A DNA stretch of 10,633 bases, from the IMG/VR virus record IMGVR_UViG_2548876964_000002; one strand, written 5' to 3'. The translations under genes were made by a program, and so were the position numbers. The notes under the pieces were generated by a model. The model ran no database searches, was not told the origin of the DNA, and saw only the letters and a list, made by a program, of their open reading frames with translations. The DNA is from a virus. Its lineage: Duplodnaviria; Heunggongvirae; Uroviricota; Caudoviricetes. Positions within the stretch are counted from its first letter, which is position 1, and each line of letters begins with the position of its first letter. Positions 3,303 through 10,633 of this stretch are shown piece by piece.

Positions 3303-3358
3303 ACAAAAAATACATCTTGTGCATGGATGATTTTAGTACAGAGCGTAATAATAAGGGT

Positions 3359-4018
3359 ATGAAAATGAAATGGTATGAACTGGCTAGATCCAGAATGAAA
3401 GAGCTCGGCATAACTCAAGAGAAGTTAGCCGAAGAGCTTGGTATGACGCAGGGTGGAATTGGTCACTGGTTGCGCGGATCTCGTCATCCATCTCTTGACG
3501 AGATTGGTGTGGTGTTTAAATACCTTGGTATTGATAACGTCTCATTCAACCACGACGGTACATTTTCACCTGTTGGCGAATACTCATCTGCCCCCGTTAA
3601 AAAACAATATGAGTACCCTGTTTTTTCTCATGTTCAGGCCGGTATGTTCTCGCCTGAGCTTAGAACCTTTACCAAAGGTGATGCGGAGAGATGGGTCAGC
3701 ACAACCAAAAAAGCCAGTGATTGTGCGTTTTGGCTTGAAGTTGAAGGTAATTCCATGACCGCGCCAACAGGATCCAAGCCAAGCTTTCCTGACGGGATGT
3801 TAATTCTCGTTGACCCTGAGCAGGCTGTTGAGCCAGGTGATTTCTGCATAGCCAGACTTGGTGGTGACGAGTTTACCTTCAAGAAACTGATCAGGGATAG
3901 CGGTCAGGTGTTCCTACAACCACTAAACCCGCAATATCCAATGATTCCATGCAATGATAGCTGTTCCGTAGTAGGGAAAGTTATCGCCAGCCAGTGGCCT
4001 GAAGAGACATTTAGTTAA
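3359..4018 (+). CDS. cI: CI-type prophage repressor with LexA/S24-like autocleavage domain
   Basis: C-terminal ~135 aa ([36 protein letters not shown]...[12 protein letters not shown]) matches the lambda CI C-terminal domain as recalled, almost residue for residue. N-terminal HTH ([22 protein letters not shown]) is unlike lambda. Start is ambiguous among ATGs at 3359, 3365 and 3317; 3359/3365 are favoured. Confidence 0.9.
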
Positions 4019-4050
4019 CAGCCTCACCACTCTAAAACACACAACAATAA

Positions 4051-4078
4051 CCCGACCTTAGCGTCGGGTTTTCTTTTT
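4051..4078 (+). terminator. Rho-independent terminator after cI
   Basis: Stem cccgac/gtcggg with a 6-nt loop, followed by ttttcttttt, about 33 nt past the cI stop. No rexA/rexB-like ORFs lie between cI and PL. Confidence 0.65.
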
Positions 4079-4144
4079 CCAAAATATAAACCCATTAAAT
4101 ACAAAGCGTTATAAAAAACTAAACCATATTTAGAACATTTTGTA

Positions 4145-4173
4145 TTGACTCAGTAAAGTACACATCGTACTAT
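4145..4173 (+). promoter_or_regulatory. PL-like sigma70 promoter
   Basis: -35 TTGACT (4145-4150), 17-bp spacer, -10 TACTAT (4168-4173), in an AT-rich tract upstream of nutL and N. OL operators are presumed to overlap but were not defined. Confidence 0.65.
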
Positions 4174-4218
4174 TTAGCTATCAGCAGGAAGCTGGAAGCC
4201 AAACGGAACAGACTGGCA

Positions 4219-4265
4219 GGCTCTTTAAACAACGTCGAACACTCGACTACGTGGCTGAAAAGCCA
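4219..4265 (+). promoter_or_regulatory. nutL-like site (boxA plus hairpins)
   Basis: GGCTCTTTAAACAAC (boxA-like), hairpin GTCGAACACTCGAC, spacer TACG, then TGGCTGAAAAGCCA (5-bp stem, GAAA loop). Same tripartite layout as nutR. Confidence 0.6.
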
Positions 4266-4290
4266 GATCACCCAACCACATAAGCTGTGG

Positions 4291-4338
4291 GATGCAATGC
4301 CGAAGCAACCGTCTCAGGAGGGGCTTCGAGATTGCATC
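4291..4338 (+). other. Large imperfect hairpin in the N leader (candidate RNase III or translational-control element)
   Basis: gatgcaat (4291-4298) pairs with attgcatc (4331-4338) and cgaagc (4301-4306) pairs with gcttcg (4323-4328), leaving a 16-nt apical loop. Lies between nutL and the N Shine-Dalgarno; lambda has an RNase III-sensitive hairpin in the equivalent leader. Confidence 0.45.
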
Positions 4339-4363
4339 GCCAAAGTTTATTCGGGAGGAATCT

Positions 4364-4636
4364 ATGTCCAGAAAAACAGAATTTAAAGGAACCGCAGCTT
4401 CTCGCCGTAGAGCTCGTCGTGCAAATCTGCAAAGTCAGGAGGCGATCAGCTCCGACAAGCTACACAGGCCAACCCCTTCACGAGTGGTCTTGCAATGCAA
4501 GCGCAAACCAGCAATGAGAGCAGAAGTGATAACTCTGACAACGTTGACCAGAAAATATGAAGGTTCAACTTGTCTTCCGAACGTAGCCATTTACGCGGCA
4601 GGCTACCGGAAATCAAAACAACTGACGGCGAGATGA
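4364..4636 (+). CDS. N: N-like transcription antitermination protein (90 aa)
   Basis: First gene after PL and nutL; GGGAGG Shine-Dalgarno before the ATG at 4364. Arginine-rich motif near the N-terminus (TAASRRRARRANLQ), as in boxB-binding N proteins. The track's upstream start at 4292 falls inside the leader hairpin and is rejected. Confidence 0.75.
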   Translation: MSRKTEFKGTAASRRRARRANLQSQEAISSDKLHRPTPSRVVLQCKRKPAMRAEVITLTTLTRKYEGSTCLPNVAIYAAGYRKSKQLTAR

Positions 4637-4694
4637 CTTGTGTTGGTCGCCAGAAAATGAAATTAGGCAGCAAACCACTTATTTGAGGTGAGAT

Positions 4695-4781
4695 ATGGAA
4701 GAAGAATTTGAAGAGTTCGAAGAGCATCCGCAGGATGTGATGGAACAATACCAGGACTATCCGTATGACTACGACTACTGA
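4695..4781 (+). CDS. Small hyper-acidic peptide (28 aa), lambda orf28-like
   Basis: MEEEFEEFEEHPQDVMEQYQDYPYDYDY, preceded by GAGGTGAG Shine-Dalgarno; the 3' end overlaps the ral start. Same position and size as the small ORF recalled between N and ral in lambda. Under the track's length cutoff. Confidence 0.5.
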   Translation: MEEEFEEFEEHPQDVMEQYQDYPYDYDY

Positions 4782-4965
4782 TAAAAATCAATGGTGTGGA
4801 CAATTCAAGCGATGCAATGGATGCAAGCTGCAATCGGAATGCATGGTTAAGCCTGAAGAAATGTTTCCTGTAATGGAAGATGGGAAATATGTCGATAAAT
4901 GGGCAATACGAACGACGGCAATGATTGCCAGAGAACTTGGTAAACTGAACAACAAGGCTGCCTGA
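4765..4965 (+). CDS. ral: Ral restriction-alleviation protein (66 aa)
   Basis: MTTTTDKNQWCGQFKRCNGCKLQSECMVKPEEMFPVMEDGKYVDKWAIRTTAMIARELGKLNNKAA matches the lambda Ral sequence as recalled, including the Cys-rich motif. Confidence 0.8.
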   Translation: MTTTTDKNQWCGQFKRCNGCKLQSECMVKPEEMFPVMEDGKYVDKWAIRTTAMIARELGKLNNKAA

Positions 4966-4982
4966 TGGCGGCCTTTATTTTT
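4956..4982 (+). terminator. Rho-independent terminator overlapping the ral stop codon (tL1-like)
   Basis: Stem ggctgcc/ggcggcc (one G-U pair), loop tgat containing the ral TGA, then tttattttt. Confidence 0.55.
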
Positions 4983-5030
4983 GGCATAAACAACAGAATA
5001 AACACAGCACTGAATTATTTGAGGTGAGAT

Positions 5031-5501
5031 ATGACAAAATCATGGAGCGTACCTTTTCCTGAATCAGAAACTGAACATGATGGAATGCCTGTTTTCTGGA
5101 GATTCCAAGCGACAGTTGAAGAAGATGGAATCAAAATATTCGCACTTCAATATATAGCTTTTCATCAGACAGATCATTATGCATGGTTGGTTCCTGCGCA
5201 TTGGATTGTTAATTTTAAACCAGCACCAAATCAGTGGTTACAGGAATGGAAACAAAGGAGAAATAGATATGCAATTAAGAAAGTAGCAAAAAATGCCGAA
5301 AGATCTTTTGCATTCCCGACGAAGAAACTTGCCATTGAAAGTTTATTGCGCCGGAAGAAGTACCATTTAATGAGAATCAAACAAGATTTGGCTGTTGTAT
5401 CAACTCTTGTTGATGGGATGAAGAATATTGATACATCAATACCAGATATTGAATATAACTTTGGACACAACCAAGAAACAGAAAATTGGGTGTTTTATTA
5501 G
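5031..5501 (+). CDS. Hypothetical protein (156 aa), visibly AT-rich, moron-like, no recognised family
   Basis: Clean ORF with GAGGTGAG Shine-Dalgarno and no predicted membrane segments. Composition is clearly more AT-rich than its neighbours by eye (not computed). Sits at the sieB / P22 gene 17 position and is bracketed by terminators at 4956-4982 and 5606-5631. Confidence 0.7.
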   Translation: MTKSWSVPFPESETEHDGMPVFWRFQATVEEDGIKIFALQYIAFHQTDHYAWLVPAHWIVNFKPAPNQWLQEWKQRRNRYAIKKVAKNAERSFAFPTKKLAIESLLRRKKYHLMRIKQDLAVVSTLVDGMKNIDTSIPDIEYNFGHNQETENWVFY

Positions 5502-5515
5502 TACGAATAAGCACT

Positions 5516-5543
5516 GTGTATTCATTCCAACGAGTGAATACAC
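5516..5543. repeat. Perfect 9-bp inverted repeat (GTGTATTCA ... TGAATACAC) with 10-nt spacer
   Basis: Seen directly, 15 nt after the stop of the 156-aa gene. No T-run on either strand, so it is not a standard intrinsic terminator. Confidence 0.5.
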
Positions 5544-5605
5544 GGAGCAATGTCGCTCGTAACTAAACAGGAGCCGACTTGTTCTGATTATTGGAAATCT
5601 TCTTT

Positions 5606-5631
5606 GCCCTCCAGTGTGAGGGCCTTTTTAT
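5606..5631 (+). terminator. Rho-independent terminator upstream of cIII
   Basis: Stem gccctc/gagggc, loop cagtgt, then ctttttat. Confidence 0.6.
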
Positions 5632-5695
5632 ATGCATACCAATAACGCTTCACTCGAGGCGTTTTCGTTATGCAATCAAACAGAAGGAGCATCCT

Positions 5696-5866
5696 ATGCA
5701 ACAGTTCGCTATTGCAGGGGCGGCATCGGTTCGCCCTTTCAACCCGATTTTATCGGTACAGCATTCACGAAAAAATATTTTAACCGGAGCAGACTTTAAA
5801 CAACCAAGAATGAAAAGCTTGCTCGAAAAGCTTTGGGATATTTTGAAACAACAAGGCCGCCCATGA
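5696..5866 (+). CDS. cIII: CIII-like protein (FtsH inhibitor, 56 aa)
   Basis: MQQFAIAG...LLEKLWDILKQQGRP parallels the recalled lambda CIII (MQYAIAG...LIDILNQPGVP). GAAGGAG Shine-Dalgarno before the ATG at 5696. The track's upstream start at 5591 spans the terminator and is rejected. Confidence 0.75.
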   Translation: MQQFAIAGAASVRPFNPILSVQHSRKNILTGADFKQPRMKSLLEKLWDILKQQGRP

Positions 5867-6033
5867 GTTTTACAGATAACTGGTCAGACGAAGAATTCAT
5901 TCGTCAGATGAAAGAATTAATCGGTAACGAAGGAGATATTCATGTCACTTGCAACCACCGTGAAGGAGAGCAAGTTACAGAGACGCATGTACACGCAGCA
6001 GGCGTTAATGTATCGCCAGAAGGGAGATCGTGA
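5863..6033 (+). CDS. Small protein at the kil position (56 aa); possible Kil-like host division inhibitor
   Basis: ATG overlaps the cIII stop (ATGA), so the two are translationally coupled. Assigned by gene order only (cIII then kil then erf in P22-like phages); sequence not recognised. Confidence 0.45.
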   Translation: MSFTDNWSDEEFIRQMKELIGNEGDIHVTCNHREGEQVTETHVHAAGVNVSPEGRS

Positions 6034-6122
6034 AGGTGTTCGCGTATTTTTAAATGCGGCAAAGACTGAAGTATTAAATCAGCGTTATTTCCTTGGGCCA
6101 TGTCCATTCTGAGAACAATCAT

Positions 6123-6728
6123 ATGAGCAAAGAATTTTACGCAAGACTGGCAGCTATTCAGGAAAATCTGAACGCGCCCAAGAATCAGTACAACTCATTC
6201 GGTAAATATAAATACAGAAGCTGCGAAGACATTCTTGAAGGCGTTAAGCCGTTACTGAATGGTCTGTTTTTATCAATCAGCGATGAAGTTGTGTTGATTG
6301 GTAATCGGTATTACGTGAAAGCCACGGCAACTATTACCGATGGCGAAAACAGTCATACGGCAACCGCTCTTGCACGAGAGGAAGAAAGCAAGAAAGGAAT
6401 GGATTCTGCACAAGTTACGGGAGCTACAAGCTCTTATGCACGCAAGTATTGCCTCAATGGTTTGTTCGGCATTGATGATGCGAAAGATGCAGATACAGAC
6501 GAGCATAAACATCAGCAGAACGCAGCAGCAAAGCAATCAAAACCATCACCTACACCTGAACAGGTTCTAAAAGCATTCACTGACGCAGCATTGCAGAAAA
6601 ACACCGTAGAAGAGCTTAAACAGGCGTTCGCCAAAGCGTGGAAGATGCTCGAAGGCACACCGGAGCAGCACAAAGCGCAGGACGTTTACAACATCAGACG
6701 AGACGAATTAGAAGGAGCGGCTGCTTAA
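6123..6728 (+). CDS. erf: Erf-family single-strand annealing recombinase
   Basis: N-terminal two thirds (MSKEFYARLAAIQENLNAPKNQYNSFGKYKYRSCEDILEGVKPLL...GATSSYARKYCLNGLFGIDDAKDAD) closely matches P22 Erf as recalled; the C-terminal third diverges. Start set at the internal ATG at 6123. Confidence 0.9.
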   Translation: MSKEFYARLAAIQENLNAPKNQYNSFGKYKYRSCEDILEGVKPLLNGLFLSISDEVVLIGNRYYVKATATITDGENSHTATALAREEESKKGMDSAQVTGATSSYARKYCLNGLFGIDDAKDADTDEHKHQQNAAAKQSKPSPTPEQVLKAFTDAALQKNTVEELKQAFAKAWKMLEGTPEQHKAQDVYNIRRDELEGAAA

Positions 6729-10248: not shown

Positions 10249-10633
10249 TGAACCGCCCCGGAAATCCTGGAGACTAAACTCCCTGAGAAAGAGGTAAACA
10301 GGATGACTAAAAATACTCGTTTTTCCCCCGAAGTCCGTCAGCGGGCGATTCGTATGGTTCTGGAAAGTCAGGATGAATATGACTCACAGTGGGCGGCAAT
10401 TTGTTCCATTGCCCCAAAGATTGGCTGTACGCCGGAGACTCTGCGTGTCTGGGTTCGCCAGCATGAGCGGGATACCGGGGGCGGTGATGGTGGGCTCACC
10501 AGCGCTGAACGTCAGCGTCTGAAAGAGCTGGAACGTGAAAATCGTGAACTGCGCCGCAGTAACGATATCCTTCGCCAGGCTTCCGCTTATTTTGCGAAGG
10601 CGGAGTTCGACCGCCTCTGGAAAAAATGATGCC
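10249..10633 (+). mobile_element. IS3-family insertion sequence (IS629/IS1203-like), left end and OrfA; continues past the window
   Basis: Left terminus begins TGAACCGCCCCGG at 10249. OrfA follows, and ATGATGCC at 10626 matches the recalled IS629 OrfB start (MMP...) in the overlapping frame. Confidence 0.8.
10303..10629 (+). CDS. IS3-family transposase OrfA (HTH plus leucine-zipper subunit)
   Basis: 108-aa [25 protein letters not shown]...[35 protein letters not shown] matches IS629-type OrfA as recalled. Confidence 0.9.

Follow-up and report, generated by a model that had tools for sequence, protein, structure and literature searches.

A predicted soluble, basic PHROG 1636 protein encoded by a cassette between N and the PreS homologue of a lambdoid prophage

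Several accessory genes of the lambdoid pL region have been described. SieB, a membrane-associated protein, is made in lysogens by way of a promoter of its own. Classical morons come with both a promoter and a terminator and are active in the prophage. Short conserved boundary sequences are a known phenomenon in lambdoid mosaics. Ral is a proven counter-defence gene in the literature, and orf184 (AFM76385.1), which comes from the same accessory region as ral, triggers the P4 gop-beta-cII abortive-infection (Abi) system (Silas et al.). The same region of lambda also encodes PreS, or LPR1, an Hfq-dependent small RNA (sRNA) of the ral-ea10 intergenic region whose 3' end is tL2a and which was found by experiment in lambda to up-regulate the host dnaN (bioRxiv 10.1101/2024.10.31.621285). 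Here we describe an open reading frame (ORF) for a protein of 156 amino acids (aa) that lies between ral and PreS in a 10,633-bp stretch of viral DNA (IMG/VR record IMGVR_UViG_2548876964_000002), the whole of which was analysed and is called the window. The window matches, at 100% identity, a prophage found in enterohaemorrhagic Escherichia coli (EHEC) O111:H8 chromosomes, for example NZ_CP077600, and by this identity is part of an EHEC O111 lambdoid prophage. The original prediction had drawn attention to the ORF as a gene of foreign composition at a superinfection-exclusion position, bracketed by terminators and matching no family. The reading we prefer, with a probability of roughly 45%, is that it is an accessory cassette of a hotspot between N and PreS, which would be expressed early and in dependence on N and whose soluble, basic product would aid lytic development.

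The 156-aa gene and its cassette

The ORF and the elements that define its cassette are as follows.

5031-5501, + strand: 156-aa ORF with ATG start, of the HK97 Gp45 / 933W ST933Wp19 / PHROG 1636 family
5013-5510, + strand: 498-bp cassette absent from lambda, consisting of an 18-bp leader with a Shine-Dalgarno sequence (SD), the ORF and 9 trailing bases; it contains block copy 2 at 5015-5033
4679-4697, + strand: 19-bp SD+ATG block TTATTTGAGGTGAGATATG, copy 1, heading the orf28 homologue; exact repeat
5015-5033, + strand: 19-bp SD+ATG block TTATTTGAGGTGAGATATG, copy 2, heading the 156-aa ORF; exact repeat
4996-5012, + strand: left junction repeat GAATAAACACAGCACTG, the final lambda-homologous bases before the cassette
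5505-5516, + strand: right junction repeat GAATAAGCACTG

The supposed lack of a family did not hold up. The protein matches phrog_1636 over its full length (residues 1-156 on profile 1-156 of 156, E 1e-111), a PHROG labelled function unknown, and it is the same protein as HK97 Gp45 (NP_037731) and 933W ST933Wp19 (NP_049479), with 98-99% identity over the full length (98% for HK97 Gp45). It has no match in Pfam, NCBIfam, PADLOC or the sequences of the PDB, and a literature search by identifiers (ST933Wp19, NP_049479, HK97p36, NP_037731, phrog_1636, HK97 gp45) returned no relevant paper on the gene. Of 5,426 complete E. coli genomes, 598 (~11%) carry the cassette DNA, at up to 4 copies per genome, and the E. 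coli copies of the ORF are annotated as hypothetical without exception. Compared with the HK97 copy, the ratio of nonsynonymous to synonymous substitution rates (dN/dS) is 0.075, and among 29 distinct E. coli alleles the variant codons are 22 synonymous versus 6 nonsynonymous. The ORF is a real gene under purifying selection. Internal stop codons occur in three of these 29 alleles (IMG/VR loci L006-L085), and several database entries (P0009, P0010 and P0021) are truncated or frameshifted, so that by their sequence some prophage copies are decaying.

As had been noticed by eye, the gene is more AT-rich than its neighbours. Its GC content is 36.1% compared to 46.4% for the whole window, where it is the most AT-rich gene, and its GC at third codon positions (GC3), 28.7%, is the lowest value in a set of 20 genes. 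Among 471-bp segments just 0.6% are equally AT-rich, and the segment of minimum GC begins at 5054. The composition is thus distinct from that of the neighbours. The ascription of this to foreign origin fared less well, since GC lies 3.5-9 points under that of the flanks in all seven homologue loci compared, including one in a genome of ~60% GC. The very low GC3 is limited to the E. coli/Salmonella clade of the family. AT-richness is therefore in part a family trait, and foreign composition would account for only part of it. The strong SD that had been pointed out was confirmed as GAGGTGA at 5021-5027, 3 nt 5' of the ATG.

Comparison with lambda places the gene in a discrete insertion. Positions 4670-5012 are 96.5% identical to lambda orf28-ral and the first 46 bp after ral, and 5511-5633 are 97.6% identical over 123 nt to the lambda sequence that directly succeeds it in the ral-ea10 intergenic region. 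Lambda is contiguous across the 5012/5511 break and has no counterpart of 5013-5510, hence the 156-aa ORF constitutes a 498-bp cassette. The cassette is flanked by an imperfect direct repeat, GAATAAACACAGCACTG on the left and GAATAAGCACTG on the right, of which lambda has a single copy.

The 19-bp block that provides the SD and start codon of the ORF is not particular to it. An exact scan of viral (IMG/VR) contigs found the block in at least 120 of them, and among the matches listed it heads at least 12 unrelated ORFs: the 156-aa ORF 62 times, which makes it the commonest occupant, orf28 (with or without ral) ~40 times, an acidic 107-aa ORF 5 times, an 83-aa ORF 5 times, a 121-aa ORF twice, and several singletons. 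The 121-aa protein is near-identical to UDP0047 of the Silas library, where it is entered with two transmembrane (TM) segments. On the 3' side, a linker CGAATAAGCACT directly before the PreS hairpin is common to several unrelated cassettes, and most arrays end there. Over 80 IMG/VR loci the unit of block, ORF and PreS-like element is constant, while its upstream neighbour is N or orf28-ral and its downstream neighbour is ea10 (commonest), gp17, or cIII directly. In H-19B and HK97, N is followed directly by the block heading the 156-aa ORF, with no ral. Taken together, the sequence comparisons indicate that the N-to-PreS slot is a linker-bounded hotspot for accessory genes. The view of the slot as variable and linked to defence was borne out, as the block-headed slot also carries ral and the Abi-triggering orf184. 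Because short boundary sequences in lambdoid mosaics are already known, the hotspot is not new in kind; and as the family is already catalogued, any novelty would lie in the unplaced fold and the activity of the protein.

Predicted expression from pL, and the flanking hairpins

On the + strand the window carries, in order, a cI-type repressor gene, a pL-like promoter, a nutL-like site, N, an orf28 homologue, ral, the 156-aa ORF and cIII, and then kil-like and erf genes. The features around the cassette are listed below.

3317-4018, + strand: cI-type repressor gene (ORF)
4145-4173, + strand: pL-like promoter, TTGACT-17-TACTAT, from a promoter scan; directly 3' of the cI-type repressor gene
4220-4247, + strand: nutL-like site, with boxA-like GCTCTTTAAACAA at 4220-4232 and then a boxB-like hairpin GTCGA-ACAC-TCGAC at 4234-4247, from sequence and a hairpin scan
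4364-4636, + strand: N antiterminator (Pfam N_peptide 5.8e-32; phrog_271)
4695-4781, + strand: orf28 homologue (lambda orf28-ral DNA identity 96.5%), overlapping the ral start
4765-4965, + strand: ral, restriction alleviation (Pfam Ral 3e-47; phrog_1055)
4954-4983, + strand: terminator-like hairpin at the ral stop codon, with a 9-pair stem at 4954-4975 whose loop TGAT holds the stop, then TATTTTTG; -17.1 kcal/mol, z -3.6
5511-5548, + strand: conserved hairpin with the 9-bp inverted repeat, identical in lambda
5544-5633, + strand: PreS/LPR1 sRNA homologue, ~88 nt, 5' end approximate, ending in the tL2a intrinsic terminator (stem 5606-5623 and U-tract)
5606-5623 (stem), + strand: tL2a terminator-like hairpin, then CTTTTTAT; -10.7 kcal/mol, z -2.0
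5644-5672, + strand: second terminator-like hairpin, AACGCTTC-ACTC-GAGGCGTT then TTCGTTAT; -9.9 kcal/mol, z -2.8; upstream of cIII
5696-5866, + strand: cIII, start ATG 5696, SD AAGGAG 5684-5689; phrog_550 4e-22 on residues 36-91 of ORF 5591-5866

The pL-like promoter, nutL-like site and N all lie upstream of the 156-aa ORF on the same strand. The boxA-like call at 4220-4232 follows the boxA consensus, and the 933W record annotates nutL at the position equivalent to the nutL-like site of the window. The likely start of N is the ATG at 4364, preceded by SD GGAGGA at 4354-4359, whereas the mechanical ORF begins at 4292. A consensus scan of the + strand from 4173 to 5869 found no further promoter-like (sigma-70-like) site after pL. 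With no promoter of its own, the terminator-like hairpin at 4954-4983 directly upstream, tL2a downstream, and pL, nutL and N upstream, the 156-aa gene should not be expressed in a repressed lysogen but should be switched on early in the lytic cycle. Such N-dependent early expression is, from the arrangement of these sites, very probable. In our proposal, N-antiterminated RNA polymerase would read the gene from pL soon after infection or induction, and the strong SD on the 19-bp linker would direct its translation. Having no promoter of its own, the gene would stay silent in the repressed prophage.

The hairpins proved real, though the roles first given to them need revision. The 4000-6500 region contains seven terminator-like sites compared to 2.7 +/- 1.6 in shuffled sequences. 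The original prediction had the gene insulated by intrinsic terminators on both sides; the two hairpins exist (z -3.6 and -2.0), but they are not insulating parts of the cassette. The upstream one includes the ral stop codon. Its lambda counterpart, three substitutions apart, is unfolded (-6 kcal/mol, z +0.37), indicating that the ral-stop hairpin is specific, at the sequence level, to the ral variant of the window. The downstream one is tL2a. Similarly, the 9-bp inverted repeat is real and perfect (5516-5524 / 5535-5543), and as RNA it extends into a hairpin of 14 pairs (-24 kcal/mol, z -4.8), but it is not a feature of the gene. Because lambda has both the inverted repeat and tL2a without the gene, both belong to the PreS region.

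Element 5544-5633 is 97.6% identical to lambda over 123 nt spanning it, with an identical terminator stem, and so falls within the sequence identity of at least 92% to lambda by which LPR1 homologues are recognised (bioRxiv 10.1101/2024.10.31.621285). An Rfam search of 4000-6200 gave a chance snoRNA as its sole match, and the PreS-like element was unmatched at E up to 1. The PreS homologue lies directly 3' of whichever cassette fills the hotspot, both here and in most of the E. coli prophages sampled. It may serve as the 3' untranslated region of the cassette mRNA, and since the cassettes are directly upstream of it, cassette content might alter PreS processing or level.

With the second terminator-like hairpin (5644-5672), located 10 bp beyond the mosaic boundary at 5634, the stretch from the cassette to cIII has terminator-like sites in tandem. 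The segment holding this hairpin is common to H-19B and 79% identical to lambda upstream of cIII. The orf28 homologue encodes a 28-aa, extremely acidic and Tyr-rich peptide, MEEEFEEFEEHPQDVMEQYQDYPYDYDY, with few substitutions across ~40 contigs; to our knowledge no function is on record for it. At the end of the window, ORF 10303-10629 is an OrfA of the IS3 family, annotated in relatives as an IS1203-family transposase, and several otherwise identical O111 prophages align only as far as 10250. This points to an interruption of the distal early-left region by an insertion sequence (IS) element in this strain.

The protein family and its possible roles

A profile search of 1.84 billion representatives found 86 cluster-representative relatives at E<=1e-3, mostly of 130-160 aa, which match only PHROGs labelled function unknown and no recurrent Pfam family. 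Among 74 aligned members, phrog_1636 was matched by all 74 and phrog_13631 by 62. The PHROG 1636 superfamily takes in phrogs 13631, 25384 and 28215 and occurs in Gammaproteobacterial and marine phages, its source names all being 'hypothetical'. G33, T47, K87 and A101 are kept in at least 90% of aligned members. We detected no homology to a structural or housekeeping phage protein. AlphaFold 2 (AF2) modelling on the 74-sequence alignment gave a confident prediction, with a predicted local distance difference test score (pLDDT) of 95.0 and a predicted template modelling score (pTM) of 0.81, and all five models agree (pLDDT at least 94.4 for each). In the model a three-stranded beta-meander (residues 19-55) is followed by a pair of short helices, a short strand at 83-86 and, at 98-130, a helix of 33 residues. 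Compared with solved structures it has no match, and neither structural nor profile comparison gave significant similarity to the AP2 / integrase arm-type DNA-binding fold. Structural relatives were found in BFVD (E down to 5e-7), from diverse phages; these include phiAxp-3, RG-2014 and phiEa2809, which we take to be virulent, and on that account the spread over phage types is not lysogeny-specific.

The protein has a mass of 18.6 kDa, an isoelectric point of 9.07 and a grand average of hydropathy (GRAVY) of -0.55. No transmembrane segment was found, the maximum Kyte-Doolittle 19-residue mean being 0.71, and this value likewise does not fit the membrane association of SieB. From the model and these properties it is predicted to be a soluble alpha/beta protein. 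Residues 74-118 have a net charge of +14 and are flanked by acidic termini. Across the superfamily this core remains basic (net charge median +11, minimum +5), with K/R retained at positions 24, 83, 84, 87, 98, 108, 109 and 117. Judged from its charge alone, the polycationic core suggests binding to nucleic acid or another polyanion; binding to nucleic acid in particular we hold to be somewhat short of an even chance.

More distant homologues, at 20-63% identity, are always co-oriented in leftward early operons of temperate phages, with recombination genes on one side and xis/int on the other. Prophages of Pectobacterium and Brenneria have the homologue downstream of RecT/YqaJ and just before xis-int. 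Among the individual loci of our set, it is upstream of an excisionase-like gene and an integrase in L091, downstream of RecT-YqaJ-CsrA in L089, and two to five genes after a C5 methyltransferase, before int or AlpA, in L214 and L215. L216 has a Lar-type restriction alleviation gene (Lar_restr_allev) two genes upstream of the homologue, and the order in L092 is Tad2-like ... RecT-YqaJ ... SSB-ORF ... Dam methyltransferase ... AlpA. An all-against-all comparison of neighbours across nine divergent loci found no common partner gene besides the family itself, so the gene appears to be a single-gene module. In L216 (6100-7447) and L089 (5136-6459) the start of the ORF overlaps the stop of an upstream gene for a protein of ~290-300 aa, which suggests translational coupling in these two loci. 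A two-gene system with this upstream ORF was considered and rejected, as the upstream proteins of L089 and L216 are unrelated. A plasmid leading-region gene was rejected as well: only 11 'plasmid' records were found, all non-mobilisable and resembling phage or chromosome fragments.

We hypothesize that the soluble 18.6-kDa product, with its basic beta-hairpin/long-helix core, would bind nucleic acid or another polyanion in the infected cell, and would aid lytic development by countering a nucleic-acid-directed host defence or by modulating DNA or RNA transactions of the host or phage. Protecting the lysogen is probably not its purpose. A modest prior for counter-defence comes from the company the gene keeps, namely Ral in this window, orf184 in the hotspot, and elsewhere the Lar-type gene, orphan C5 or Dam methyltransferases near the homologues (L214, L215 and L092) and, again in L092, the Tad2-like gene. 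By this analogy a counter-defence role can be entertained but is doubtful. Less probable still is the more specific proposal that this protein, as the first to be characterised from a widespread fold family confined to phages (PHROGs 1636, 13631, 25384 and 28215, together with the BFVD relatives in phages that we take to be virulent), neutralises nucleic-acid-directed immunity, or another host nucleic-acid transaction, by basic, non-mimic binding, as an interchangeable hotspot cassette.

Several observations weigh against the reading we prefer. There is no homology-based functional lead, each source naming each member 'hypothetical'. Characterised anti-restriction proteins are mostly acidic DNA mimics, whereas this protein is basic. 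The family has no match in PADLOC, and no mobilisable plasmid carries the gene. Guilt by association is weak, as early-left operons often contain methyltransferases and recombination genes in any case. A weak or non-sigma-70 promoter may have escaped the consensus scan, and read-through may occur in the lysogen. Finally, the anti-defence models of DefenseFinder passed over the gene in EHEC phages that carry it, flagging only methyltransferases, Ral and Gam (PMC12502783).

As the first of two serious alternatives, the protein could play an accessory part in phage DNA metabolism or in decisions on lysis-lysogeny, excision or recombination, acting as a DNA-binding architectural or regulatory protein with Erf or RecT-exonuclease, SSB, RdgC or xis/int, and not against host immunity. 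The distant homologues that adjoin RecT/YqaJ, SSB and RdgC and directly precede xis, AlpA or int fit such a role, as do the conserved basic core and early-operon expression. We nevertheless consider it unlikely, because no partner gene is conserved, and in E. coli the gene is N-proximal, distant from int and xis. Furthermore, lambda, P22 and most lambdoids dispense with it (598 of 5,426 E. coli genomes carry it), and the slot is shared by unrelated accessory cassettes, unlike core DNA-metabolism functions.

The second is that the protein acts early against the host, by toxicity or takeover as Kil, Ndd and Alc do, and would bind the nucleoid, RNA polymerase or another essential target so as to shut down a process of the host in lytic growth. 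This would agree with the expected early, lytic-only expression of a strongly basic protein, with fold relatives in the phages that we take to be virulent, and with internal stops in 3 of 29 prophage alleles, as expected if leaky expression were costly. However, the protein has no similarity to known takeover proteins, and the majority of prophage copies are whole and subject to purifying selection, making this explanation quite improbable.

The superinfection-exclusion candidacy with which the gene was introduced found little to sustain it. A prophage-expressed exclusion or defence moron that guards the lysogen would account for the foreign-looking composition, the variable slot and the terminator-like hairpins on both sides, and another cassette of the hotspot is a 2-TM protein. 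Yet no promoter of its own was found, a terminator is directly upstream, and expression would require pL and N, both shut off by repression in lysogens. The protein is predicted to be soluble with no TM segment, gives hhalign probabilities of at most 1.4% to SieB, Ea10 and gp17, and has no PADLOC match. The downstream terminator and hairpin are those of PreS/tL2a, which lambda has although it lacks the gene; phages that we take to be virulent carry fold relatives; and lambda sieB lies elsewhere, on the other strand. We regard this explanation as very unlikely. That the gene is a decaying or selfish passenger, as its optional presence and the alleles with stop codons might suggest, is hardly credible given dN/dS of 0.075, the 22 versus 6 variant codons, the conserved superfamily and the confident fold prediction.

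On balance, the original observation is largely correct and its interpretation is borne out in part. The gene is an accessory one, uncharacterised and distinct in composition, and its hotspot is associated with counter-defence; the interpretation is wrong on the position and on the nature of the terminators and the repeat, and probably also on a role in exclusion or defence. Carriers of the gene include model and medically relevant phages, among them HK97, 933W (a phage encoding Shiga toxin 2, Stx2) and many others of the Stx1 and Stx2 types, as well as ~11% of complete E. coli genomes, yet it has no Pfam family. It is a defined target for counter-defence and host-takeover screens, which have missed it so far. 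If the protein proves ordinary, the gain from the analysis would be a corrected map of the region, in which sieB is not here and the terminators belong to ral and PreS.

Comparison with known lambdoid systems

SieB of lambda and P22, like the 156-aa gene, is encoded by an accessory gene of the lambdoid pL region. The slot between ral and cIII is not the site of lambda sieB, which is at 34482-35036 (+ strand), between N and ral and on the opposite strand to pL, whereas the 156-aa ORF follows ral and has the orientation of pL; in lambda it is ea10 that lies between ral and cIII. A relationship to SieB was rejected at an hhalign probability of 0.4%.

P22-type gp17 and lambda Ea10 are, like the 156-aa gene, products of optional genes in the pL operon segment between N and cIII, and relationships to them were rejected at hhalign probabilities of 1.4% and 0.1%, respectively. 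They differ in lying downstream of PreS/tL2a. ea10 co-occurs with the ORF in most loci, and gp17 does so in H-19B and six IMG/VR loci, so neither is allelic to it. The comparison of the slot with that of P22 gene 17 is correct insofar as gene 17 is between N and cIII in H-19B, but H-19B also carries the 156-aa ORF: its GenBank record (AF034975.3; L001) contains the ORF at 1625-2095, intact and unannotated, between N and gene 17, showing that the two genes co-exist.

Morons such as HK97 gp15 resemble the cassette in their deviant composition and in being inserted between sequences that are adjacent in a relative. Unlike them, the cassette has neither a promoter nor a terminator of its own, only an SD. 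It begins 18 bp before the ATG and ends 9 bp past the stop, and the next terminator is tL2a.

orf184 is a hotspot cassette behind the same 19-bp block, in 5 contigs among the matches listed. It encodes an unrelated, acidic 107-aa protein (MEALVVERSEDGYW...). Identity of the 156-aa ORF with orf184 was rejected, as both the AlphaFold file of orf184 and the library table show the unrelated 107-aa AFM76385.1; fragment searches of the sequence table of the 200-gene Silas library gave 0 matches to the 156-aa family.

The lambda Ral/orf28 module shares with the 156-aa cassette the N-to-PreS hotspot, the identical 19-bp block and N-dependent early expression, which for the 156-aa gene is predicted from its position. 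Ral and the 156-aa protein are unrelated in sequence, size and charge, and here the two modules stand in tandem rather than as alternatives. Closest of all are HK97 Gp45 and 933W ST933Wp19, whose genes, as in the window, are downstream of N and followed by a PreS-like element and terminator. In HK97 and 933W, however, the gene comes directly after N, with no orf28-ral module between them.

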